Shown here piece by piece: positions 16,872 through 29,560 of a DNA stretch of 64,000 bases. Each line of letters starts with the position of its first letter. Position 1 is the first letter of the stretch. The translations under genes and the position numbers were made by a program. The notes under the pieces were generated by a model. It worked only from the letters and a program-made list of their open reading frames with translations. It did not search any database and was not told the DNA's origin. Source of the stretch: a virus (taxonomy: Duplodnaviria > Heunggongvirae > Uroviricota > Caudoviricetes); the IMG/VR virus record IMGVR_UViG_2597490230_000001, positions 25,917-89,916 of that record; one strand, written 5' to 3'.

Positions 16872-17109
16872 AAACAGGAATAATTTTAACTAAGTTCTCA
16901 TGATAACGACGCCAAACACGATATTCATCTACTGGCTCTTTATCGAACTCAAAACGAGGACAAACATCAGTCACATACACATGACCAATGAGTACTTTAG
17001 TATTCACGTTTTCCAACGAAGACTCCGTTCTCCCACTGATGGAGATGTTCAATATCCCAACAATCTGCGACAGCTTCAGCCTGGAATGAATCACAGCGCC
17101 AAGTATCAC
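16825..17109 (-). CDS. hypothetical protein
   Basis: 94 aa ORF. Confidence 0.4.
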   Translation of the reverse strand: MILGAVIHSRLKLSQIVGILNISISGRTESSLENVNTKVLIGHVYVTDVCPRFEFDKEPVDEYRVWRRYHENLVKIIPVYADEDVEDESCDFLV

Positions 17110-17211
17110 CTTCCATTAATCCATCAACGTGCTGACGAGCATAACGAAATGCCTCATGTGTATCAAAGAAATTCATGATACCATGTTCGTCGTAAATCCA
17201 CCAAAATGTTT

Positions 17212-17415
17212 TCATCGTTGTGCCTTAAGTACGTGAACTGGAGAAACAGTGAATCTTTCCCTTTGGGATTCATCAATGCGATTTGTTATAAACTCCCAAG
17301 CTTTATGTTCACTGTCGAACATATAGTAATTGGTGTCTGTATTGGATTGGTCACATGTCATGACAAATTTCCCATCAATCATCCGACCAATTATCCACAA
17401 TTTAGAACCTGCCAT
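17212..17415 (-). CDS. hypothetical protein
   Basis: 67 aa ORF. Confidence 0.4.
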   Translation of the reverse strand: MAGSKLWIIGRMIDGKFVMTCDQSNTDTNYYMFDSEHKAWEFITNRIDESQRERFTVSPVHVLKAQR

Positions 17416-17416
17416 A

Positions 17417-17617
17417 TCAACTCCAAGGCATTTTGGTTAAGTTTCTCATCGAACTTTTGTACGATGGGTGAAGTTTATAGAGACAGCCTCTTTCTACACA
17501 CCAGTCAGTTGCTCTATTCCGTAAGCGTATAAGACCGCAAACAGCACAGACGTGCTTACCAGCATTGCTGTCAAGAAACCATCGGTGTCCTTCCATTCGA
17601 TACTTTTCACTGTCCAT
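17417..17617 (-). CDS. hypothetical Zn-finger protein
   Basis: CAVCG motif. Confidence 0.4.
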   Translation of the reverse strand: MDSEKYRMEGHRWFLDSNAGKHVCAVCGLIRLRNRATDWCVERGCLYKLHPSYKSSMRNLTKMPWS

Positions 17618-17729
17618 TCAACACACCTAAATCTATTAAGAACTTAGATATAATTAACGGGAGGCATACAATTATGAACCACCAGAATACTGCTGCCAGA
17701 AAACAATTAATGCCTCTCATTATCATACC

Positions 17730-19631
17730 TTAGTGAGTGTGTAACCAGGAGCCGCCTAACATAGAGTCAGACGCCAATGGACATTCCATATTCAGAGATT
17801 CACCAGCCTTCTTAACACAAGCATCAATATAAGAGCGAAGAGTTGGAACATCTTCCCATTTGCAAGTGAACTGGAATTCATCGTGCATCATGATAACTTG
17901 GTAAGCTTCCAGACCAGATTTTTCAATCCAACCTGTCAGATAGCAATCTGCAATCTTCATTACGATTGAACCAGCAGACTGTAACATTGTGTTCAAAGCT
18001 TTGTGAGTCATTACTTCGCCGCTGAATGGGTCACGACGCATGATGAGCTTACGACCATCAATTGCTGGAACCCAACCATTCTTGCCAGCGAAATCCTGAA
18101 CCCAATCCATAAGAACTGGAATACAAGGACACTCTTTCAAGAATGCTTCACGAGCTTTCTGACCCTCTTCAAGACCACCACCCAACTGAGCACCTAAGTT
18201 TGCGTTACCAGCGCCATACAAGAACGCATAGATAAACGTCTTAGCTTGCTTACGAGTTGGAAGACCTGCAAGTTTCTGGTTGTGTGAGTGGATATCACCA
18301 TTCAACAGAACTTCACGATATTCTAAAGCTGAATCAAGAGCTTTCTGATAATAAGATTCTTTCTTCTTATCACCACTCTCTTTAGCTTCTTCCAGAAGCA
18401 TCTTAGAAACTGCAATCAGATAATGAGTCAACATACGTAACTCAAGACCTGCACCATCCCCACCAACAAACGCATCTTGACCAGCAGGAATCAGGAATGA
18501 ACAGTGACCTGCGTCTTCCCAACGACCTTTGTCAAACTCCTGCATAATGTTGGTAAGCGGTTTACGTCTGAACTTGCCAGATGCTTCCATCTCAGCAGTC
18601 AGCTTACGAACAAGTTTAGCTGTTGAGCCTTTACGTTTGTCACCTTTGAACAAGTGACGACACTCCTCACCGAATGGTGAACCTGCGGCTGGAATGTTAA
18701 CAATAATCTTATGTCGCATACGTGCTGTAGGAGTCGCACATGGGTTAGCTTCACCCGACAACTTCCCATCCACACGCACCTGCTCAATCAGACCTTGAAT
18801 CAACGAACGACGGTGAGCCCAAATCATTCGTTCTTTCAGAAGTTTGAGAGCGAGACCTTCATCCTCACTCACTGATTCAAATGAATCCTCAGTGATTTTC
18901 GGAGAGGTTGGCCAAAACTGTCGCAGTAGTAACTTCTTTTTAATCTGGTCAAAGTTAGGAACCTTGCGGCTTAGGTCGAAGCCAATTGCCGTCAAGATTG
19001 CTCTCATGTAACCTTTTGATTTTCCACGGAGATGGGAATCTACGAAACCCTCAACCGCTTCTAAGAAAGCTACTTTATCTTCTTTGTCACACTGATTGTT
19101 GATGAAGTTCGCAAACGTTGATTTCTCAAGACGTTTACGATACTGCCACACTTGGAATGGAGTTTTCTTCTCATTCCATTCAGTAGGTAACCAACCCATA
19201 TCCAACATGACATCTTTCAGACGAGATGTTTTACCTGGGTCAAATGGAGTATACCAAACCGCTGAAAACGGTCCGGAGACTTCATCAAGAGTCAGTCCAT
19301 GAGTGTCCATGTATTTCTGCACGAACACTTTCGGCTGGCCATTCATCTTGAACGGTGCTTTATATTCAGTACCTTTGTGCTGCATCGGCGGCAACAGAGG
19401 AACCAACTCAAGGTCAATCTTGAGAATCTTTTCAGTGAGAACATGAACATACCAACGAGCTTGACGCTCATCGAAATTACACCCATGCTTCCATTGTTTT
19501 GAGATTAAATCTGCAACCTTCTGTTCAAGAAGGAAAGGTTTTGTCCAGTCCGGTTTGATATCCATATCTACCTCAATCAGTTCACTTGCCGTACACCTGA
19601 ACCCATTTGGCCAGTTTATTGCTGATAGCAA
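17730..19631 (-). CDS. DNA polymerase I family, polymerase (palm/fingers/thumb) subunit; the exonuclease domain is encoded separately at 26294..26800
   Basis: Motif B RKQAKTFIYAFLYGAG and motif C HDE; no 3'-5' exo motifs in this ORF. Confidence 0.8.
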   Translation of the reverse strand: MLSAINWPNGFRCTASELIEVDMDIKPDWTKPFLLEQKVADLISKQWKHGCNFDERQARWYVHVLTEKILKIDLELVPLLPPMQHKGTEYKAPFKMNGQPKVFVQKYMDTHGLTLDEVSGPFSAVWYTPFDPGKTSRLKDVMLDMGWLPTEWNEKKTPFQVWQYRKRLEKSTFANFINNQCDKEDKVAFLEAVEGFVDSHLRGKSKGYMRAILTAIGFDLSRKVPNFDQIKKKLLLRQFWPTSPKITEDSFESVSEDEGLALKLLKERMIWAHRRSLIQGLIEQVRVDGKLSGEANPCATPTARMRHKIIVNIPAAGSPFGEECRHLFKGDKRKGSTAKLVRKLTAEMEASGKFRRKPLTNIMQEFDKGRWEDAGHCSFLIPAGQDAFVGGDGAGLELRMLTHYLIAVSKMLLEEAKESGDKKKESYYQKALDSALEYREVLLNGDIHSHNQKLAGLPTRKQAKTFIYAFLYGAGNANLGAQLGGGLEEGQKAREAFLKECPCIPVLMDWVQDFAGKNGWVPAIDGRKLIMRRDPFSGEVMTHKALNTMLQSAGSIVMKIADCYLTGWIEKSGLEAYQVIMMHDEFQFTCKWEDVPTLRSYIDACVKKAGESLNMECPLASDSMLGGSWLHTH

Positions 19632-19866
19632 TCATTAAGTCGGCTTCGTATTTTCCTTGAAGACCAGAGTCCAATGCGGCCTGGTATCCTGCGTCAGTTA
19701 CTGCAATAATCACATCAGCTACTTCACTGACAATCTCTTCGTAGCCCATACGCTTAAGAACTGCCTGAGCAAGTTCTCCAGTTTCTTCAGCTACCTTGAG
19801 AGTGACACCTATAGTGTCACGCTCTTGTTCAATGCTTCTGGCAGTACAAATGACCTCATCCAGCAT
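19582..19866 (-). CDS. MazG-like nucleoside triphosphate pyrophosphohydrolase
   Basis: EETGELAQAV (EExGE) motif. Confidence 0.6.
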   Translation of the reverse strand: MLDEVICTARSIEQERDTIGVTLKVAEETGELAQAVLKRMGYEEIVSEVADVIIAVTDAGYQAALDSGLQGKYEADLMIAISNKLAKWVQVYGK

Positions 19867-20240
19867 TAGATTAAGTTACCCCATTTAACGAAACGACCAG
19901 TCTTAGTATCACGAACAGATACGTTAGTACGGAAAAGTTCTTTCAACTCTTCTTTCTTAGACATGAGTTTCTGATGTTTATAGATTTCACCAACAGCAAG
20001 TCGAGTAGGCTTGTCATTGGACTCAAACAGGCACACCAAATCGTCGGCCAGTACAGAAGAGTGAGTTTCGTACTCGGCTGCTGATACAAAACGACCGTCG
20101 GTGGTATATTCACGATATGCAATCAGAAGTGCCATAATTTTACTGCTCCATAGTATTAGGGAAATAACGTTGGTAGTTCTTTGCGTGTGCCGTTTCCATT
20201 TTGGCAACACACTGACGACAAAGGGGAAATAACCCATCAT
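19866..20240 (-). CDS. hypothetical protein
   Basis: ORF; true start probably at an internal Met. Confidence 0.4.
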   Translation of the reverse strand: MMGYFPFVVSVLPKWKRHTQRTTNVISLILWSSKIMALLIAYREYTTDGRFVSAAEYETHSSVLADDLVCLFESNDKPTRLAVGEIYKHQKLMSKKEELKELFRTNVSVRDTKTGRFVKWGNLI

Positions 20241-20448
20241 CGCTATTGGAGGACTCTTCGAAGTGGAAGACCCCTCTCAAATTCTGACAGTGAGAGCAAC
20301 GCTTGCATTCACCGTATTGGGACCGAGCCCAGTTATCCATGTCACGACGAACTCTCCCGGCATCCACCTGGGCTAAGAGTAACCGTGCATCCAGATAACG
20401 TTTATTCAGAGACTTCTTCAACGGAGTATTCACGACCATCCTCATCAT
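20140..20448 (-). CDS. hypothetical Zn-finger protein
   Basis: CKRCSHC...CRQC motifs. Confidence 0.45.
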   Translation of the reverse strand: MMRMVVNTPLKKSLNKRYLDARLLLAQVDAGRVRRDMDNWARSQYGECKRCSHCQNLRGVFHFEESSNSDDGLFPLCRQCVAKMETAHAKNYQRYFPNTMEQ

Positions 20449-20866
20449 AATATGTTATATGAGTGTAATCATAAGATGCTTCACCCCAGTAATCCCAATT
20501 GCAAGGCCAGTAATCTCCGAAGACACCATACTCGTTGGTTTCTTCATCGTAACCAAACCACTTATTCCAATCAGGAACATCTTTTGAATTTTTGTAAAGA
20601 TACTCATCACCGCCGCCACGACCATGAGGGTATGCAACCGCCATCTGATTTTTCAGGAAGTCAGCGAATTCAACAGCTTGCTCTTTACTCTTAATCTTGA
20701 TATTTACTGTTTCATAAGCATCAGCGTCACCGAAATATGTATGAATTTCAAAACGATATTCATTCTTCGGGTTTTCTTTAGTTACTTCTTTACCAATTTT
20801 CAGGTCAATTACATTTGCCATATTAGCCTTAGAGATGTTACGATTACGATAAATCGCCATTGCCAT
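20402..20866 (-). CDS. hypothetical protein
   Basis: 154 aa ORF rich in W/Y. Confidence 0.5.
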   Translation of the reverse strand: MAMAIYRNRNISKANMANVIDLKIGKEVTKENPKNEYRFEIHTYFGDADAYETVNIKIKSKEQAVEFADFLKNQMAVAYPHGRGGGDEYLYKNSKDVPDWNKWFGYDEETNEYGVFGDYWPCNWDYWGEASYDYTHITYYDEDGREYSVEEVSE

Positions 20867-20904
20867 TCCTTAGAGACAAGAAAGGCCGCCTTTCGGCAGC
20901 CCTG

Positions 20905-21246
20905 TTAATCGGGACGTTTCACTGGTAAGCGTTTGGACTTAGCGCCCTTCTTCCCACCTTTGGACTTCCCTGCCTTACTACCTGACTTGCCACCAGCAGA
21001 CATATTCTCACTAGCATCACGAAGACGCAAGTTAGAGCTGTGGTTATCGCCACCAGATTTCAGAGTTTTCTTGTGGTCAACATGAGTTGAAGTAGGCAAC
21101 TTCTTGCCCATCTCATTTTGAACCTTTCTACGAGCCTTATGACGCATTGCATCACCAGACTTCGCACCTACGCCTGTTTCACCACGTTTAATGGCTGTCA
21201 GACGTTCTTGCTTATAATTACGAACGTATCCAGGACTAGACGGCAT
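20905..21246 (-). CDS. highly basic hypothetical protein (possible DNA-binding)
   Basis: 113 aa, Lys/Arg/Gly-rich. Confidence 0.45.
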   Translation of the reverse strand: MPSSPGYVRNYKQERLTAIKRGETGVGAKSGDAMRHKARRKVQNEMGKKLPTSTHVDHKKTLKSGGDNHSSNLRLRDASENMSAGGKSGSKAGKSKGGKKGAKSKRLPVKRPD

Positions 21247-21435
21247 TGTAAACCTCCGTGTTATTCACTGCACGAACGGTCAACGCCACGTTCACTTTGT
21301 TGCTCTCGTTTCATCCAAACCTGACCTAGCTCTTGATAAGCTCGACCGGACTTTTCATCACCAGCAGCATAAGCGTCGTCACGCATTTTAAAACACCATT
21401 CAGTAGCAGTCATTTGTACACCTTCCATGTTATTA

Positions 21436-21603
21436 ATTCTCCCAATAATCGTCTACATCAGATTCATCGAATCTTTCCCCGGGGACTGTTTCTTTACAGC
21501 GGGGGCATTCATAATAGTGGGAATAATCATCCGTACTTACTTGTTTCATTGGAATAAAGCACCAGTCACATTCCACTGACCGGCGTGTGACTCGACGATA
21601 CAT
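21436..21603 (-). CDS. small Zn-ribbon protein (56 aa; not in the ORF track)
   Basis: CDWC...CPRC; start is coupled to the macro-domain gene stop via TAATG. Confidence 0.35.
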
Positions 21604-22103
21604 TATACCGAATACTCCACATAAGTTACATCAAACATTGGATAACCAATTCTTTCATTGTCGAAGATTTCTTCGATATGTTTTGAGATTCGTTCCCAAT
21701 TACCACCACCCAAACCACAACCGATTTTTGGGAAACCGATACGATAGGTTTGGAAGTCAACAGCATTAGCCTTAAGTTCATTGGCCATCATGTTGAGTGC
21801 ATGAACTAAAGCCTCTTCATCAGTACCATAATTACCCTGGGTTTTATCCCAACCGTACTGACCATAGAGGTTGAAAACCAAAAGACCACTTTTCTCTTTA
21901 CCTACAGAGAAATTACCAAGCTTAGCTTTGTCACCACGATTGGTATCGGCATCTGCACGGAAAGCAGAGTAAAAGTTGTCAGCAATCTGAGGGGCAATGC
22001 CACTTCTCATTGTACAGAAGCAGTTAGCCTGATGTGCAATCACATCAAACTGACCTTCTTTAGCCAGTTGAATCAAGTTGCCCCGAATTGTCTTCAGGCT
22101 CAT
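21603..22103 (-). CDS. macro-domain (ADP-ribose binding/processing) protein
   Basis: VIAHQANCFCTMRSGIA and GFPKIGCGLGGG macro motifs. Confidence 0.8.
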   Translation of the reverse strand: MSLKTIRGNLIQLAKEGQFDVIAHQANCFCTMRSGIAPQIADNFYSAFRADADTNRGDKAKLGNFSVGKEKSGLLVFNLYGQYGWDKTQGNYGTDEEALVHALNMMANELKANAVDFQTYRIGFPKIGCGLGGGNWERISKHIEEIFDNERIGYPMFDVTYVEYSV

Positions 22104-22165
22104 TAACTACCTCCCAAGATTGGGTTTCTTCGTTAAAGTTGATAAGGACGGGTTTCCCCGTCACT

Positions 22166-22465
22166 TTACTGATTACCCGCAGCATTTTGTAAATCCTGAG
22201 TTACCAGTTTTGTTACACGACGAGTGATATAAGCCCTCGCCACCTTAGGGTTAAGTTCCATCAGCAGGTCTTCAACTTCCTCATCAATCTCGTGAGGTGT
22301 CACAACCAGTTGGTGCAGATACTTACCCTGGACAATCATTGCAATCTGCAACGCTTGGTCGAAAGACGACATTTCGACCGCCTCTTGGGCGGCCATGATT
22401 GATTGGATAATCTGATTAACATCGAAGTCAATCAAACCACCCTGACGTGCCATAAACTTTACCAC
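22166..22465 (-). CDS. hypothetical protein
   Basis: 99 aa ORF. Confidence 0.45.
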   Translation of the reverse strand: MVKFMARQGGLIDFDVNQIIQSIMAAQEAVEMSSFDQALQIAMIVQGKYLHQLVVTPHEIDEEVEDLLMELNPKVARAYITRRVTKLVTQDLQNAAGNQ

Positions 22466-22473
22466 AACTTACC

Positions 22474-22914
22474 TCACTGAGAAGAGCGCAGGAAATATGC
22501 TTGTTTTTCCAAATCAGCACACAGGTCCTGGAGGATGTTCTGAGTGACCGGATTATCGGCATCCCGAATCATAGAGTAGAGATGAGTAGCAACAGTCTCA
22601 AGAGTAGAAACCATACCACCCACCATGTCGTCTCGGTCAATTTCATGGTCGCCTTCACTAAACCACATACTCTCAAGATAGAGAGCTGCACGAGCATCAA
22701 CGGGCTCTTGTAAAGCTCGCATACGCTCTGCGATGGTGTCAATCCAGTCTTCAACTAAATCAGCGAGTCCATCAAAGGTGTGATGGTCGCCATAGAAACT
22801 TTCACCTGTAACATTCCAGTGATAGTTTTTAGCCTTAATCTGCAACAGTGTCAGGTTACCAACAAGTACCTGGAGTGATTCTGGTGCAGGGCGTTTTGGA
22901 CGTGCTCCTAACAT
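22474..22914 (-). CDS. dps: Dps-family ferritin-like DNA-protection protein
   Basis: KNYHWNVTG...F...HH pattern matching Dps ferroxidase-site residues. Confidence 0.75.
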   Translation of the reverse strand: MLGARPKRPAPESLQVLVGNLTLLQIKAKNYHWNVTGESFYGDHHTFDGLADLVEDWIDTIAERMRALQEPVDARAALYLESMWFSEGDHEIDRDDMVGGMVSTLETVATHLYSMIRDADNPVTQNILQDLCADLEKQAYFLRSSQ

Positions 22915-23579
22915 TATTCAGTATCCTTAATAGTAGCTTTCAGGGATTCCCAAGCAATTGGGAAGAGTTTGGACAATTCTTTGTCAATCTCTTGAGCAAA
23001 GAGTCTTACCTCATACTGAGCATGTGTGCTTGAACGCTGACGATAAACTTCAAACCAACCGTACAGTGAACCAGTCCATACCCACTCGGTAATCATGCCT
23101 TGTGGCAGTACGAATCTCGCTTGTTCAGGTGTGACACCCATTTCAAGCAGTCGTTCATAATTGGCTACAGCATCTTCACACATACGCTCAAAAACAACAT
23201 GAGCCATAGTTCCATCAACAGAAGACTTATCAAAAGCTTCACCGGAACCATCATGAAGATTATCTGGTCGCTTGAACAACACATCAGGTTTAAACACTTC
23301 AACTCCACCATCTTTGTATCGACGGCTAAGTTCATTCCAGCTAAAACCAACTTGGTGCTTGCCTAACTGACGGGCAATAGCAATAGGTGCTTTACAGCGG
23401 AAGGTAATAGTAGCATGACGGAAGGGTGTAACATGACGCTCACGAGCAAGGAACTTAACCAGACGAACATCTCGTTCATTCATCTCACCTTCACGAACTA
23501 CACCGTATGAAACTCGTGCTGCATTAACAACAGAAGTATCATTACCCATTACATCAACAAGTTTAGCTTCAATAGTCAT
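22914..23579 (-). CDS. thyX: flavin-dependent thymidylate synthase
   Basis: ThyX-like RH...S...R signature (FRHATITF ... ELSRRY) and size. Confidence 0.75.
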   Translation of the reverse strand: MTIEAKLVDVMGNDTSVVNAARVSYGVVREGEMNERDVRLVKFLARERHVTPFRHATITFRCKAPIAIARQLGKHQVGFSWNELSRRYKDGGVEVFKPDVLFKRPDNLHDGSGEAFDKSSVDGTMAHVVFERMCEDAVANYERLLEMGVTPEQARFVLPQGMITEWVWTGSLYGWFEVYRQRSSTHAQYEVRLFAQEIDKELSKLFPIAWESLKATIKDTE

Positions 23580-23597
23580 CCATGACTCCCAAATTAA

Positions 23598-23837
23598 TTA
23601 TTCTTCCAAATCCCACTCATAGTCACTGAATCCACCTGGAGGATAGAACCCTTCTGGAACATCAATGATATCCATACTATCATTAAGACCAAAAGTTTCA
23701 CAGTGAGTATCACAATCTTGTAACTGACTAGCATAGATTAAATCTTTGAAATAATGAATGCTTGCCGAACCGTCACCACCATTAGCTATTAATAAACCAA
23801 CTTTCATTGTGAGTATTCCAAGGAACAGGATTGACAA
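23598..23837 (-). CDS. hypothetical protein
   Basis: 79 aa ORF. Confidence 0.4.
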   Translation of the reverse strand: MSILFLGILTMKVGLLIANGGDGSASIHYFKDLIYASQLQDCDTHCETFGLNDSMDIIDVPEGFYPPGGFSDYEWDLEE

Positions 23838-23977
23838 TCACGACACTTCCACTCTTTTACAGTGATAGTGACGTACTCTTTATTCTTACCACGCTTGGGA
23901 GAGCCCTTCTTGAGCTCTCTCATTGTGTAAGTTCGAGATGCCATATGAGTGCTATCACACTTGAAGCATTTCATAAA

Positions 23978-24211
23978 TCACCAATACAACATGCCGATTG
24001 CATCATCCCTTTCATCCCAATCGTCATAATCACGAGAGGAATTGTATCCAAATACTCGGAAGTGGTCTGGACAACTGGGCCGTTTTGGGAACTTCTTAAC
24101 TTGGGAACTTGAGAACAAAGCAACTCCGTCGGAAGAACGAGCCGAAGCTCGCTCACCCTTCTTCACCATCTTGCCCTTCTTGTTCCAATCCTTCAAGGAA
24201 CGATAGACCAT
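23978..24211 (-). CDS. hypothetical protein
   Basis: 77 aa ORF. Confidence 0.4.
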   Translation of the reverse strand: MVYRSLKDWNKKGKMVKKGERASARSSDGVALFSSSQVKKFPKRPSCPDHFRVFGYNSSRDYDDWDERDDAIGMLYW

Positions 24212-24212
24212 A

Positions 24213-24479
24213 TTAGCGACTCTCTTCTAAATCCATGTTAGCACCCACATTACCTTCAAGGTTGGCATTCACTTGCTGAGTGATTACCACAAGGTTTTTA
24301 GGGTAGGAGAGGGTTGTTTTACCACTGGACAGAACATGGATACGAACTTTCTGTTTGGTTACACCAACAACTCGTGCAACCATAATAGGTTGGTTGTATT
24401 TACCGTTCGACCAGATAACAATATCATCACCGCGAATTACACGGTTCAGTTTATCACGATGGTTATAATCAAGAAGCAT
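24213..24479 (-). CDS. hypothetical protein
   Basis: 88 aa ORF. Confidence 0.45.
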   Translation of the reverse strand: MLLDYNHRDKLNRVIRGDDIVIWSNGKYNQPIMVARVVGVTKQKVRIHVLSSGKTTLSYPKNLVVITQQVNANLEGNVGANMDLEESR

Positions 24480-24765
24480 TTTCCGCCTTCCGTGCCGCTG
24501 AGAGAATGAAATTCCGCAGCATGTCTTCAGACTGCATACCTGTCTTCATGTCCAGAGGAGCAGAATCCTCAAACACAACGATAGTAGGAATGCCACGGAT
24601 GCCAAAAGTACGAGCTTCGTCTCGATAGGTATCTTCATCAATACTCCGTGATTCAAATACGAAACCCTCTTCTTCAAGTTCTTTTTGAACTTTATCGAAG
24701 ATTGGAGCGATGGCCTTACATGGTGCGCAGGTGCTACCGAAATACTTAATTACCTTAAACGTCAT
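24469..24765 (-). CDS. thioredoxin
   Basis: STCAPCK (CxxC) active site in a thioredoxin-size ORF. Confidence 0.8.
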   Translation of the reverse strand: MTFKVIKYFGSTCAPCKAIAPIFDKVQKELEEEGFVFESRSIDEDTYRDEARTFGIRGIPTIVVFEDSAPLDMKTGMQSEDMLRNFILSAARKAENAS

Positions 24766-25508
24766 TACTTATCCTTTCTCTCGTTGTCATGTTCCATAGC
24801 CTTAACAACTGCTTTACAGAAGCCGCTTCGAACGATATCGTCTGAAGAACCTTCCACTACTGCTGCGAAACTGTCGAGATTATGGCGGTCAATGAAATCG
24901 ACTGACCATTCAAGGCCATTCTGCCCACTCATGTCATGCTGTTCGGAGTCACCTAAGCAGAAGAGCTTAGATGTTTCACCCAGACGAGTCATGATTGAAT
25001 AGGCTTCATCAGGTTTGGTGTTTTGTAATTCGTCAACGATGATGATTGCATCATTGAATGAACGGCCACGCAGATATTCCAGCGGGACGAATTCAATATT
25101 GCCATTACCGAGCTGACATTCATAGAAACCATGACCATAACGCTCTTTGATTACATCAATCAGAGGCATCAGGTATGGCTCGAACTTCTCACGCATTGTA
25201 CCTGGCAGAAGGCCAAGAGAGCGACCCATGCCAACTGAAGGTCGGCTAAGGATAATCTTCTTGACTTTATTCTTTTTAAGCCAGTCAATAGCGGTTGACA
25301 TGATAATAAATGTTTTACCACATCCAGCCGGAGCGTCTACGAAAACTACTTGCGACTCATGAATTTCAGCCTGTAATTCAGCCTGGAACTCATTGAGGGG
25401 ATGCACAGGTTTCGCAACTCTTACTTCTTCACTCTCACGACGAGCATGACGAGTGCTTTCTTTCAGAGCTTCACGACGCTGTTCTTTACGACTTTGACGA
25501 CGATTCAT
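24765..25508 (-). CDS. phoH: PhoH-like ATPase
   Basis: Walker A GCGKTF and PhoH family architecture. Confidence 0.8.
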   Translation of the reverse strand: MNRRQSRKEQRREALKESTRHARRESEEVRVAKPVHPLNEFQAELQAEIHESQVVFVDAPAGCGKTFIIMSTAIDWLKKNKVKKIILSRPSVGMGRSLGLLPGTMREKFEPYLMPLIDVIKERYGHGFYECQLGNGNIEFVPLEYLRGRSFNDAIIIVDELQNTKPDEAYSIMTRLGETSKLFCLGDSEQHDMSGQNGLEWSVDFIDRHNLDSFAAVVEGSSDDIVRSGFCKAVVKAMEHDNERKDK

Positions 25509-25520
25509 TCAACACCTCAC

Positions 25521-26108
25521 TTATTCCGTGTGACCTTCACCAGCGTAAGCCTTTGTTGCACCACGCTGCTTATTGTAATTACCTTTCACAGCGTATGAAT
25601 CCTCACCCACTGTTTCGTGCTGGAAGAACACCATTTGACCGATACGCATACCTGGTTTAATTAACAGGCGATGGTACTCGTTCATGTTTTTGAACTCAAG
25701 TGTAAGCTGAGCGCCATGCCAACCGGCGTCAGCCCACCCGGCTTGCATATGTTCAAGAAAACACCGTGCGACTGTAGAACGTTCAATAAACTGCCCGGAG
25801 ATGGTGTCAGGTAAATTAAAAGTTTCGACGGTGTGTGCAAGGAAGCATTGGCCTGGTTCAATTACAATACCCTCTTCTGGAATGGTTACCTTATGGAAGG
25901 TTGGTGACTGCTTAGCAGATATGTCCACTGGTTCCTCATGGACGGCATGGAATAAACCAATACCTGGGGCACGACCGTCAGCCGGTGCTTCTATGAGGAT
26001 TTCATTACCAATACGAACATCGATGGATGCAGAGTTCACATTCTCATGCAGTGCATCAATTACACCATCTTCAATCAGTTGGTGCAGTTGAGGAGCAGAT
26101 AACAGCAT
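25521..26108 (-). CDS. dcd: dCTP deaminase (Dcd family)
   Basis: Similarity to E. coli Dcd N-terminus (IDVRIGN) and the GW.D.GW.G...L.PGMRIGQ block; start set to an internal Met. Confidence 0.75.
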   Translation of the reverse strand: MLLSAPQLHQLIEDGVIDALHENVNSASIDVRIGNEILIEAPADGRAPGIGLFHAVHEEPVDISAKQSPTFHKVTIPEEGIVIEPGQCFLAHTVETFNLPDTISGQFIERSTVARCFLEHMQAGWADAGWHGAQLTLEFKNMNEYHRLLIKPGMRIGQMVFFQHETVGEDSYAVKGNYNKQRGATKAYAGEGHTE

Positions 26109-26293
26109 TAGACCTTCCTTAGTCTTCTGACTCTTCCGAGTCGTAGAAAGAATACGGGTCAGAGCAGACAATTGTGTCTGATAACTCGTCATAGCTAAAC
26201 ATAATTCCGTTTACTTCAAATAGTGAATCCATGCTAATTCCTTTAGCAAGGCCACCCTTATAGTAGTGGCCTTTGAGGGGTATCCTTACACCG

Positions 26294-26800
26294 TTATTTG
26301 TAAAATTCGATTAAGCTCGATGGCGGATTGAACGGGTCAAAACCAGCCTTTTCACAAAGGTGCAAATACAGTGCGACTGTTACGTTAACGTCCTGCTCAC
26401 AGTAGTTAAACATGTCCTCGCTGAAAACGTCCCAAACATCTTCACCTTCGCCATAAGTTCCTTTTAAGATGCCAAGTGCAACACCCCAAGACTTAAGGCT
26501 ATGACCGCCTTGACGGTCAGGCTCCAACATACGACTCAGCACAAGCGTATCAAAGACACGCTTAATACGAAATTCGTTCGGGAACAATTTTGCAAGCACT
26601 GGAAAATCGTAATCAATCACGTTGTGGCCAATCACAATATCGTATCCGGCTAAATCCTCCAGATACTCTTTCCATTGCTCAGGACGATACCCTTTACGGA
26701 TACCAGTGGTCGGCTCAATAATCCAAGCACAATGCCACTTGTCTACATCCAGATACAGGTTATTCGTTTCAATATCGGTACAAGCAATTCTTAATGCCAT
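26294..26800 (-). CDS. DNA polymerase I family 3'-5' exonuclease (proofreading) subunit, encoded apart from the polymerase domain
   Basis: Exo I DIET, Exo II HNVIDYD and Exo III YCEQD motifs in a 168 aa ORF ending at a stop. Confidence 0.8.
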   Translation of the reverse strand: MALRIACTDIETNNLYLDVDKWHCAWIIEPTTGIRKGYRPEQWKEYLEDLAGYDIVIGHNVIDYDFPVLAKLFPNEFRIKRVFDTLVLSRMLEPDRQGGHSLKSWGVALGILKGTYGEGEDVWDVFSEDMFNYCEQDVNVTVALYLHLCEKAGFDPFNPPSSLIEFYK

Positions 26801-26809
26801 GTCCTATCC

Positions 26810-27223
26810 TTAGGAATTCTCTAAATACTCCACAGCTTTTCTCAATATCTCAATGCTATCCTTGAATTGTCCTAAACCAGCGTTACAAGTTCGACAGAGT
26901 ATGCCTCGGACTTTCAATGTTCCGTGACAGTGGTCGAGAACGCCAGCACCATCCAATTCATTTTTACAGATTTTGCATTTACCTTCTTGAGATTCTAACA
27001 GAGAATTAAACTCTTCTAAGGAGATACCATATCGAGTTTTAAGTCTCTTGTTCTTCAAGTATTCATCTTGATGGGCGTAAAGCCTTTTATGTCTTTCTGC
27101 CGAAGCAGCTCTATCACAACTTTTACATTGTGATTGATATCTGCCTCGACTTTTGACAAAGTAAAATTCACCTAAACCCTTCTCAGACCCACACTTGGTG
27201 CAAATCTTAGAATGGTCGGCTAT
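26810..27223 (-). CDS. HNH homing-type endonuclease
   Basis: Cys-rich HNH motif CKICKNELDGAGVLDHCHGTLKVRGILCRTCN. Confidence 0.75.
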   Translation of the reverse strand: MADHSKICTKCGSEKGLGEFYFVKSRGRYQSQCKSCDRAASAERHKRLYAHQDEYLKNKRLKTRYGISLEEFNSLLESQEGKCKICKNELDGAGVLDHCHGTLKVRGILCRTCNAGLGQFKDSIEILRKAVEYLENS

Positions 27224-29009
27224 CATCACGAGGAACACCTCCGTCGTCTTCCGGCTCAGCGCCAGGAATTGAGAACGGATTCTTAGCGTCGTATTCATCC
27301 TCAGTACGCTGTCTCAGGCGTCCTGTTACAGGATTGTACACAGTCGGAACAATGCCGGTCTGTCCGAAGTTTCGGTCTTTGAGAAGACGAATCTGGGACA
27401 AATTACGTGCATCGCCGTCAGCCTGTTTATTGCGCTCAAAACCAAGGATTAGTTGGCTGAAACGCATTAACGCTCGGCTACCTGTAAACTGTACTTCCTG
27501 AACCTGACCACCCTCTTCGTGCGGAGCACCAGTTTTTGGTGGGTTCAAGTGAGAGAATACGAAGCAAGTGAAGTTCAACTCATTACACAGACCAGCCAGT
27601 TCAACGGCAATCTTTGCAACTTCAGTGTTGATTTCAGTCGCTGAGAGATGAGAAACCAGAGCGGTGATGTTGTCCAAGAAGATGAACTTAACACCATGCT
27701 CTACCACCCAGAAACGCATACAACGTTTGATATCTTCCCAATCGTTTTGACCGAAGTTACGGTACAAGAACAGTTGACCATCATACTTCATGGCCTCGTT
27801 CTTCAACAGGTCGGGGTCGAAATCTACGTCTGGACGGTGGAAAGGAATGTTCGCTGATTTACCAGCGATGTTCTTGATGGTGTTACCCACGGTCTCTTCG
27901 AGCATGAAAGCTCCGACCTTGTGCTTGTGTACGTTAATGATATGAGACGCAATCTCGTGTGCGAGAAGAGTCTTGCCACCACCTACACCACCACCAATAG
28001 AAATTACTTCACCGAATCGAAGACCAAAGGTCAGGTTGGTCAGACCTTCCCAAGGGAAAGACAGACCCCACTCTGGCTTCTTCAGAGCATCTTCCAAGCA
28101 TTCAGCTACAGTTGCAGAACCTGCTGGAGATTCTTTAGCTGCATTGAAACGCAGGATGTTGTTCAGCTCTAAATTACGGCCTTCCATCAGAAGGTCATTG
28201 GCATCCTTTACAGGAGAACCATCCTTCTTCAAGCCCTTTGGAATACGTGCAATCTTCACGTTCGGATACATAGCACGAATCGTGTTTACAGCATCATCAC
28301 CAGCCTCATCATTATCCATACAGACAACGATTTCAGCGAATGAATCAACGAACTGCCGGTTACGAGCTAAAGCCGAAGCTGCTGATTTAGAACCATCAGG
28401 CAACGACACACACGCTGGCTTATAAGTTGATTTGCTGTTCTCAACCAACACCTGGAAACCAGACATTGCACTGAGTTCATCTTCGAAGATAAACAGCTTC
28501 TGAGAATAAACATCACCCATTCGTGCTTGGCTGATACCAAACAGGTCACAACCACTACCAGAACCTACAGCATAAAAGCTTTTAGGATTCAGGATACGAA
28601 CTTTGTACGCCATGATAACACCATCTTTCTCCTTCGGGTAGAAGTGAGAAATAGGTTCACGGTTTGTGGATGAAAGTCCAACTCGAACGCCATAACGTTC
28701 AGCAACATCTCGCTTAATACCACGAGAATCAAGAGCCATCATTGGTAACTCACGCACCTGAGACAGCGCTGCTTCACGTTCCTCTTCTGTCAGTTCACGA
28801 TATTCTGTACGAACACCTTCCCATTCAGATTTGTTACCTTCGTCAATCTTTTCGTAGAATCCATCACGGGAGCAATAGACCCACTGTTCTTGCGTTTCGT
28901 CGTTAATCCAGTGCTGGAGATGGTTACCAGTACGGTCACGACCTTCCGCTGTACAAACTGGGCACGGAGAGTCACCCAGAATGCGTTTGTTACCATAAGA
29001 CTTGCTCAT
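27207..29009 (-). CDS. DNA primase-helicase (T7 gp4-like)
   Basis: N-terminal Zn-ribbon (CPVC...C), TOPRIM (CMDNDEAGDDA), DnaB-like Walker A GGGVGGGKT, C-terminal acidic tail ending in F. Confidence 0.85.
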   Translation of the reverse strand: MSKSYGNKRILGDSPCPVCTAEGRDRTGNHLQHWINDETQEQWVYCSRDGFYEKIDEGNKSEWEGVRTEYRELTEEEREAALSQVRELPMMALDSRGIKRDVAERYGVRVGLSSTNREPISHFYPKEKDGVIMAYKVRILNPKSFYAVGSGSGCDLFGISQARMGDVYSQKLFIFEDELSAMSGFQVLVENSKSTYKPACVSLPDGSKSAASALARNRQFVDSFAEIVVCMDNDEAGDDAVNTIRAMYPNVKIARIPKGLKKDGSPVKDANDLLMEGRNLELNNILRFNAAKESPAGSATVAECLEDALKKPEWGLSFPWEGLTNLTFGLRFGEVISIGGGVGGGKTLLAHEIASHIINVHKHKVGAFMLEETVGNTIKNIAGKSANIPFHRPDVDFDPDLLKNEAMKYDGQLFLYRNFGQNDWEDIKRCMRFWVVEHGVKFIFLDNITALVSHLSATEINTEVAKIAVELAGLCNELNFTCFVFSHLNPPKTGAPHEEGGQVQEVQFTGSRALMRFSQLILGFERNKQADGDARNLSQIRLLKDRNFGQTGIVPTVYNPVTGRLRQRTEDEYDAKNPFSIPGAEPEDDGGVPRDDSRPF

Positions 29010-29056
29010 GACTTAATTCCCTTTTCCATGTCAAACAGCATTCCATTAATGCAGGA

Positions 29057-29560
29057 TTACTTGATAGTGCGAGTTTGGCCTTCTGCATTACAGACCGCAA
29101 CGCTCTGCAAGATTAGGACTTCATGTCCAAATTCCCGCACAAGCTGACGAGCTCTGGCTTCCGCATCTTCACGAGTAAAGAAACGACGACCATAAATTCC
29201 GCGCTGAGCTTCCATATAACGAGAACCAGTTGCGAAATCGATTCCATCACGGACAGTCTCATTACGCTGAACGAGCATCCACACTTTCCGAGCCTGGTCA
29301 ACTTTGATTTTGTCCAGTCGGATGCGCAGTGGTGGAGCACCCTCCAACCAGTTCACATGAGCCAGAGGAGTGCCAATACTGGACAAACTAAATCCAGAGA
29401 TTACACCCTTAGTGAAGTTGCTCAGAATCAGATTATTCTGAACAACAACCTTTTGGCCGATGTGATATTCAAAGTTTTCCAGTTCGCACTCTTCGACGAA
29501 TCCGTATTCAAACTTACCTTCGTCAGTACTCCAGACTACATTGATTTTACGCTTTGACAT
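29057..29560 (-). CDS. hypothetical protein
   Basis: 167 aa ORF. Confidence 0.5.
   Translation of the reverse strand: MSKRKINVVWSTDEGKFEYGFVEECELENFEYHIGQKVVVQNNLILSNFTKGVISGFSLSSIGTPLAHVNWLEGAPPLRIRLDKIKVDQARKVWMLVQRNETVRDGIDFATGSRYMEAQRGIYGRRFFTREDAEARARQLVREFGHEVLILQSVAVCNAEGQTRTIK

Follow-up and report, generated by a model that had tools for sequence, protein, structure and literature searches.

Fission of a family-A DNA polymerase gene into an exonuclease gene and a polymerase gene was described as first seen in the S-SBP1-like T7-like cyanophages, in which the two genes are adjacent (Czernecki et al., 2023, PMC10201439). A separation of this kind has been labelled in GenBank since about 2008. 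The records of phage phiEco32 name phi32_74 "DNA polymerase exonuclease subunit" and phi32_53 "DNA polymerase, lacks 5'-3' and 3'-5' exonuclease domains," and the record of phage LUZ24 carries the labels "DNA polymerase part I/II/III." Original genome papers aside, the split is not discussed in the phiEco32 and 7-11 literature searched. The present analysis concerns two such polymerase genes, gp082 and gp063, in a stretch of 64,000 nt (the window) that covers positions 25,917 to 89,916 of the IMG/VR virus record IMGVR_UViG_2597490230_000001. Window positions 17500-29100 are a 100% megablast match to Salmonella phage 7-11 (HM997019 / NC_015938; Grimontviridae, Moazamivirus), and all genes of the region lie on the minus strand (-), as do the features to which window coordinates are assigned below. 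In GenBank, gp082 and gp063 are both named "DNA polymerase," and RefSeq names them "DNA polymerase exonuclease subunit" and "DNA polymerase I," respectively. The two-gene polymerase of 7-11 is thus an already known and ordinary feature, named in the databases including the phage's own annotation. What the analysis adds is an account of its origin: the 7-11 polymerase is very probably an anciently split enzyme of the T7 gp5 type whose two proteins reassemble, and the endonuclease gene gp083 next to the exonuclease gene is very probably unrelated to the split.

Exonuclease and polymerase genes

The gene gp082 (26294..26800, -) encodes the predicted 3'-5' proofreading exonuclease subunit of the family-A polymerase, a protein of 168 amino acids (aa) that corresponds to about residues 1-199 of T7 gp5. 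It gives a Pfam match to DNA_pol_A_exo1, and residues 7-153 align to residues 3-191 of T7 gp5 (phmmer against the PDB sequences). D9, E11, N60, D65, Y133 and D137 are invariant in 49 aligned homologues and form the DEDDy set of the Exo I, II and III motifs, with D9/E11, D65 and Y133/D137 pairing with D5/E7, D65 and the Exo III Y/D of T7. An AlphaFold2 (AF2) model built from the alignment of the 49 homologues reached a mean predicted local distance difference test (pLDDT) score of 95.3. Its best PDB matches in Foldseek were all T7 DNA polymerase chains, with template modeling (TM) scores of 0.81-0.82, a root-mean-square deviation of ~3 Å and E-values of ~2e-12 (2.3e-12 at TM 0.82), whereas stand-alone DEDD nucleases (NrnC, RNase T, TREX2) were matched at E-values of 1e-6 or weaker. 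A preliminary description of the window had taken this open reading frame (ORF) for the proofreading domain because of its Exo motifs, and the invariant catalytic residues and the gp5 exonuclease fold bear this out. The same description had considered that the ORF might be a stand-alone DnaQ-like exonuclease unrelated to the polymerase; the gp5 exonuclease domain proved to be its best match in both sequence and fold.

The polymerase subunit is encoded by gp063 (17730..19565, -), whose 611-aa product corresponds to about residues 200-704 of T7 gp5 and comprises the thumb, palm and fingers with motifs A, B and C. The Pfam match to DNA_pol_A (PF00476) scores 82.6 bits against a cutoff of 34.3, and T7 gp5 is the best PDB match by sequence and by fold. 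Motif A reads GGDGAGLELR, motif B RKQAKTFIYAFLYG and motif C HDE (in MHDEFQ), to be compared with the family-A references DxSxLELR, RxxAKxxxYxxxYG with the T7-type Tyr, and HDE. No exonuclease motifs were found in gp063, the N-terminus of which aligns to T7 from residue ~200 onward, i.e., to the thumb. The preliminary description had likewise reported a polymerase ORF with motifs B and C and without the proofreading domain, but its start has to be moved. An ORF of 633 aa (17730..19631) results from an upstream TTG at 19631 that falls within the neighboring MazG-like gene, while the ATG at 19565-19563 lies just past the MazG-like stop codon, is preceded by a GAGG ribosome-binding site at 19574-19571, and opens a protein start, MDIKPDW, that is the same in all relatives.

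Two regions of gp063 depart from T7 gp5. The part matching T7 residues ~262-335, the thioredoxin-binding loop, is cut to ~30 aa, and its remnant is found at residues ~60-95. In addition, two structured insertions absent from T7 gp5 were observed at residues ~135-230 and ~310-365 (AF2 pLDDT ~88-95), the former a helical module after GWLPTEW and the latter a beta-rich module just before motif A. Both are common to the polymerases of Grimontviridae, Kuravirus and, in shorter form, Bruynoghevirus.

A profile of the two joined halves is collinear with T7 gp5 residues 3-704 (hhalign probability 100%, E=9e-67). The junction, at which the end of gp082 (SSLIEFYK) meets the start of gp063 (MDIKPDW), falls on T7 residues ~195-205, the linker that leads from the exonuclease domain to the first helix of the polymerase domain. 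Alignment to gp5 had been proposed as a check in the preliminary description, and by this comparison gp082 and gp063 are contiguous halves of a gp5-like polymerase, broken at about residue 200 with no segment missing. The ratio of nonsynonymous to synonymous substitution rates (dN/dS) between 7-11 and pSal-SNUABM-01 or PKM.Lu.22.1 is 0.07 for the exonuclease gene and 0.08-0.09 for the polymerase gene, next to 0.06-0.07 for the primase-helicase gene. The low values of the two halves indicate that both are kept as functional genes under strong purifying selection.

Conservation and age of the split

Whether related phages carry a fused or a split polymerase was raised as a question by the preliminary description, and the split turned out to be conserved across several phage families. 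An order of primase-helicase, stand-alone exonuclease, other genes and exonuclease-less polymerase was found in all eight relatives tabulated. It is present in SeKF_80, and the gap between the two genes measures 6.7 kb in pSal-SNUABM-01, 6.4 kb in PKM.Lu.22.1, 8.0 kb with 20 genes in phiEco32, 8.6 kb in KM01, 1.7 kb in Bruynoghevirus WRAIR_EPa87, 2.3 kb in LUZ24 and ~19 kb in Vp_R1, the last if the linear record is read as circular. In that record, the exonuclease and polymerase genes are situated near opposite ends.

When the split polymerases are aligned together with the fused ones of T7, phTUNSm and RPSC1, the breakpoints of Grimontviridae, Kuravirus and Bruynoghevirus all fall inside a stretch of seven alignment columns. 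These three split lineages also have in common a set of indels that is absent from the fused T7-like polymerases, namely the insertions after GW(V/L)PxE and before motif A, and they lack the T7 segments beginning TLVESSQW and reading HGWDGDF. In a neighbor-joining tree, the split-type polymerases form one clade, and the exonuclease tree is compatible with a single fission but less decisive. A search of 5.8 billion proteins returned 59 exonuclease homologues, every one of them a stand-alone protein of 101-268 aa. The best 120 polymerase homologues listed, which reach down to ~38% identity, are at most 616 aa long, and none carries a precomputed match to an exonuclease domain. For fused T7-like polymerases, the match to gp063 is confined to its C-terminal two-thirds and reaches no more than 32% identity.

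The T7 gp4-like primase-helicase of 7-11 is encoded by gp084 (27207..29009, -; Pfam DnaB_C and Toprim_2). In phTUNSm and RPSC1, the fused polymerase gene directly follows the primase/helicase gene, and in T7 three small genes lie between the two. Because the polymerase of the fused relatives follows the primase-helicase, it is the exonuclease gene that appears to have kept the ancestral position, with other genes accumulating between the halves. Taken together, the comparisons support a split that is ancient and conserved and that would go back to a single old fission.

Association of the two proteins

The first of two alternatives offered by the preliminary description, that the polymerase works as two polypeptides, fits these data: the ORFs are contiguous halves with starts and stops of their own, at dN/dS values of 0.07-0.09, and the two-gene state is conserved across families. 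We infer that gp082 and gp063 reassemble on three grounds: the exonuclease subunit is kept beside the replication genes, family-A polymerases reportedly depend on their exonuclease domain for stability, and the published AF2 complex of the two S-SBP1 proteins can be superposed on an unsplit polymerase (PMC10201439).

Several points weigh against an old single fission followed by reassembly. No proteomic or biochemical data on the exonuclease subunit were found in the literature searched; of the proteins in question, the proteomics paper on SU10 names the polymerase and thioredoxin alone. An AF2 model of the joined exonuclease and polymerase chain matches T7 gp5 in Foldseek (E 2.5e-30), but only the polymerase part is confidently folded (pLDDT ~90); the exonuclease part, for which only three exonuclease rows were aligned, stays below 50. 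This low score is explained by the few exonuclease sequences alignable into the joined model, which therefore says nothing on the interface between exonuclease and polymerase. Finally, the exonuclease piece is about as similar to the exonuclease domains of the fused Studiervirinae polymerases (36-42% identity) as it is to the Bruynoghevirus subunit (37%), and the exonuclease tree alone is consequently no proof of a single fission.

The alternative that best withstands the data holds that gp082 is a free DnaQ-like exonuclease that serves in repair, degrades host DNA or proofreads in diffusible form, with gp063 working as a polymerase without exonuclease. In its favor are genes that lie kilobases apart and a joined model that gave no interface, and the Privateer paper lists the protein simply as "exonuclease." It nevertheless appears quite unlikely: the closest match of gp082 in sequence and fold is the gp5 proofreading domain and not a stand-alone nuclease, the exonuclease gene sits beside the primase-helicase gene and is paired with an exonuclease-less polymerase in every relative inspected, and both the reported need of family-A enzymes for their exonuclease domain and the predicted docking of the split S-SBP1 pair (PMC10201439) speak for a subunit.

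The endonuclease gene gp083

Between gp084 and gp082 lies gp083 (26810..27226, -), a putative free-standing homing endonuclease gene of the His-Me finger (HNH / Endonuclease VII) type. Its product matches Pfam Endonuclease_7 (PF02945, E=1.6e-23) and, across 99% of its length, shares 41% identity with F-CphI, a protein that the records of cyanophage S-PM2 annotate as a homing endonuclease. The two have the Endonuclease VII / HNH fold in common, and both are free-standing and encoded beside a presumed target. The target of F-CphI is psbA, whereas gp083 would target either the primase-helicase gene, at its 3' end, or the spacer between the primase-helicase and exonuclease genes.

The annotated ATG of gp083 lies within the primase-helicase coding sequence, and the gene is carried by a 397-bp insertion (26809..27205, -) bounded by TAAG and TAAG(G), where relatives have a 9-nt spacer. 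A MAFFT alignment of the junction with SeKF_80, pSal-SNUABM-01 and PKM.Lu.22.1 places the insertion exactly between the stop codon of the primase-helicase gene and the ribosome-binding site of the exonuclease gene. Immediately upstream of it, a tract of ~330 bp at the 3' end of the primase-helicase gene (27207..27540, -) is only 74-87% identical to SeKF_80, compared with 95-100% for the rest of that gene and 98-100% from the exonuclease gene onward. This is a probable co-conversion tract brought in together with the homing endonuclease gene; as to its donor, no sequenced phage matches the tract above 81%.

No copy of gp083 above 60% identity was found in any other phage record searched, and SE131 must therefore be without it too; a homologue of 57% identity occupies the same site in PKM.Hi.22.6. 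The gene is absent from SeKF_80, which is 97% identical to 7-11 at the nucleotide level, and from pSal-SNUABM-01, PKM.Lu.22.1, phiEco32, KM01, Vp_R1 and the LUZ24-like phages, all of which have the split polymerase. By all sequence indications, gp083 is a recent and sporadic homing-endonuclease insertion that is independent of the polymerase fission.

The preliminary description had correctly placed the exonuclease ORF after the primase-helicase and HNH genes, with the endonuclease gene between the primase-helicase and the exonuclease start. It had gone on to locate the endonuclease "at the break," which does not hold, as gp083 adjoins the 5' end of gp082 and the break corresponds to the stop codon at 26294. 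Its second alternative, that a homing-endonuclease-associated rearrangement split an ancestral gp5-like gene and that the adjacent HNH gene caused or marks this event, does not survive the comparison. In its favor, an Endonuclease VII/HNH gene does adjoin the exonuclease gene, and endonuclease genes of this type interrupt the same polymerase in relatives, though at motif B. However, the insertion is particular to 7-11 while SeKF_80, SE131, pSal-SNUABM-01, PKM.Lu.22.1, phiEco32, KM01, Vp_R1 and the LUZ24-like phages are split without it, it lies 0.5 kb from the break, and the flanking co-conversion tract points to a recent arrival. As the fission predates the divergence of whole phage families and gp083 is recent, the two would be unrelated, and a causal role of the endonuclease is highly improbable.

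Spacer and interruptions at motif B

The spacer between the two polymerase genes (19566..26293, -) spans 6,728 bp and holds 18 annotated same-strand genes (GenBank/RefSeq, Pfam), among them dcd, phoH, thioredoxin, thyX, Dps, a macro-domain gene and a MazG-like gene. The same-strand spacer had thus been recognized in the preliminary description, the distance of 6.5 kb and the count of nine genes being too low. The exonuclease ORF ends with its own stop codon, TAA, at 26294 and is followed by a small ORF and dcd. A scan of 17400-29300 for promoters and terminators stayed at chance level (24 promoters against 18.7±4.4 expected, 13 terminators against 9.2±2.9) and consequently gives no evidence of separate regulation. 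A perfect 8-bp hairpin (AAGGCCAC...GTGGCCTT) that this terminator scan missed is located at 26255-26285(-), directly 3' of the exonuclease stop codon and before the small ORF and dcd; its role could be in termination, in RNA stability or in processing. Within the spacer, gp068 (20905-21246, -; 113 aa) shows an HNH-like motif (VDHKK...N...N), and the pSal-SNUABM-01 annotation gives it as a PacI-like HNH C-terminal domain. Its conservation in phiEco32 (phi32_58) makes a mobile endonuclease improbable.

The weakest alternative treats gp082 and gp063 as exons of a single gene that RNA splicing, trans-splicing or protein splicing would bring together. It draws on the UFV-P2 genome paper, where parts I and II of the LUZ24-like polymerase are called "two exons" (PMC3890496), and on the group I intron that does occur within this polymerase in relatives, but it is next to impossible given that gp063 is provided with a ribosome-binding site and an ATG of its own and gp082 with its own stop codon, that 18 genes, several with strong Pfam matches, lie between them, that Rfam finds no intron or ribozyme in 17000-29500 at E-values up to 1, and that the gap ranges from 1.7 kb to more than 8 kb between lineages with differing gene content. 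The "two exons" description is accordingly not supported for the gap between exonuclease and polymerase, and the exclusion of a simple intron or intein in the preliminary description is upheld by the Rfam result and by the separate stop and start codons.

Interruptions of another kind affect the polymerase gene itself. Introns or endonuclease genes break up this polymerase at motif B in LUZ24 (between parts II and III), BUCT695 and several Kuravirus-like phages, and the genes of LUZ24, BUCT695, KBNP1711 and Bas93/94 were seen to be interrupted about three-quarters along. The LUZ24 genome is said to have been described as intron-containing by Ceyssens et al. in 2008. A metagenomic contig with 95% DNA identity to the 7-11 polymerase gene carries a 742-bp insertion (2042-2783 of the metagenomic locus) between polymerase nucleotides 1336 and 1337. 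The site corresponds to window position 18229/18230 and separates the motif B codons for AKTFI from those for YAFLYG. The insertion holds an Endonuclease_7 ORF and a weak full-length match to a group I intron (31.7 bits, where the gathering score is 50; E=5e-6). Seen against this contig, 7-11 has the uninterrupted allele, a predicted empty homing site, at polymerase nucleotide 1336/1337. In the Vp_R1 record (region 110072-112043), the polymerase ORF is only 503 aa long, and an HNH endonuclease gene and a stretch without annotation come after it; here, too, the polymerase is probably interrupted.

A conserved block of further genes precedes the replication genes in several relatives. Gamma-glutamyl cyclotransferase and ribosomal protein S6 glutaminyl transferase are annotated in Vp_R1, phiEco32 and Bruynoghevirus, and an amidoligase is annotated in Bruynoghevirus and Vp_R1. 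Vp_R1, KM01 and Bruynoghevirus have a gene annotated as glutamine amidotransferase/aminotransferase, which the retrieved part of phiEco32 did not show. Of this block, the part of 7-11 that was inspected (beyond 29581) showed only the cyclotransferase (gp086).

Discussion

The course of events suggested by these comparisons starts from an ancestral gene of the T7 gp5 type, which would have undergone an ancient fission at the linker between the exonuclease and polymerase domains, near T7 gp5 residue 200. The exonuclease gene, today gp082, would have stayed at the start of the ancestral polymerase gene, directly after the primase-helicase gene, while accessory and nucleotide-metabolism genes later gathered between the halves in one same-strand cluster. 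Today the halves stand 1.7-2.3 kb apart in Bruynoghevirus, whereas 7-11 and its relatives have 6.4-6.7 kb between them and the phiEco32-like phages 8.0-8.6 kb. The two proteins most likely associate non-covalently to give a gp5-like proofreading polymerase, an association that we infer.

A phage thioredoxin gene, gp079 (24469..24765, -), is also situated between the polymerase halves, and phage thioredoxin has been proposed as a processivity factor in the Privateer paper. It is conceivable, although rather unlikely, that the polymerase of 7-11 operates as a modular holoenzyme of three parts, in which the proofreading subunit docks in trans onto the polymerase and the thioredoxin acts as processivity factor. 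Separate genes would then allow the dosage of proofreading to be tuned without a change in synthesis, and the polymerase insertions would replace the shortened loop as docking sites.

The value of the present analysis lies in correction rather than discovery: the split is old and clade-wide, and the recent arrival of an endonuclease gene next to the exonuclease gene would be coincidental. In addition, the phiEco32 / 7-11 / LUZ24 group offers a handy natural system for the study of proofreading with a separately encoded exonuclease subunit.

Compared with T7 gp5 (PDB 1T7P and others), the 7-11 enzyme has the DEDDy residues, motifs A, B and C, and the motif B Tyr in common. T7 gp5 is a single chain of 704 aa, whereas 7-11 uses two ORFs, each with its own start and stop; the thioredoxin-binding loop measures ~70 aa in T7 and ~30 aa in 7-11, and the 7-11 polymerase has the extra structured insertions. 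Among the closest described counterparts is phiEco32 (Kuravirus), which has the same two-gene architecture, the same break position and an exonuclease gene after the primase-helicase gene, together with the same classes of genes in the gap (dcd, phoH, trx, thyX and Dps). Its exonuclease and polymerase are 52% and 46% identical to those of 7-11. It differs in its 8.0-kb gap with 20 genes, in the lack of an endonuclease gene between primase-helicase and exonuclease, and in an extra loop of the exonuclease. The LUZ24-like phages (Bruynoghevirus) agree with 7-11 in the fission point, in the polymerase insertions and in the synteny from primase-helicase to exonuclease, at identities of 37% for the exonuclease and 47% for the polymerase. 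Their gap is only 1.7-2.3 kb long and contains six to eight small genes, and in LUZ24 an endonuclease gene separates the annotated polymerase parts II and III, whereas the 7-11 polymerase is uninterrupted.

In the S-SBP1-like cyanophages, a T7-like polymerase is divided between the exonuclease and polymerase domains as in 7-11, and the products are predicted to reassemble (PMC10201439). The cyanophage genes are adjacent and overlapping and derive from a recent +1 frameshift, whereas those of 7-11 stand 6.7 kb and 18 genes apart and would go back to an ancient fission. Between the cyanophage polymerases and gp063 there is only a weak match (34% identity over 40% of gp063), and the two fissions are therefore probably independent. 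With halves 1.7-8.6 kb apart, the phiEco32 / 7-11 / LUZ24 group thus appears to represent an older, larger and more extreme instance of polymerase fission than the cyanophage case of 2023.

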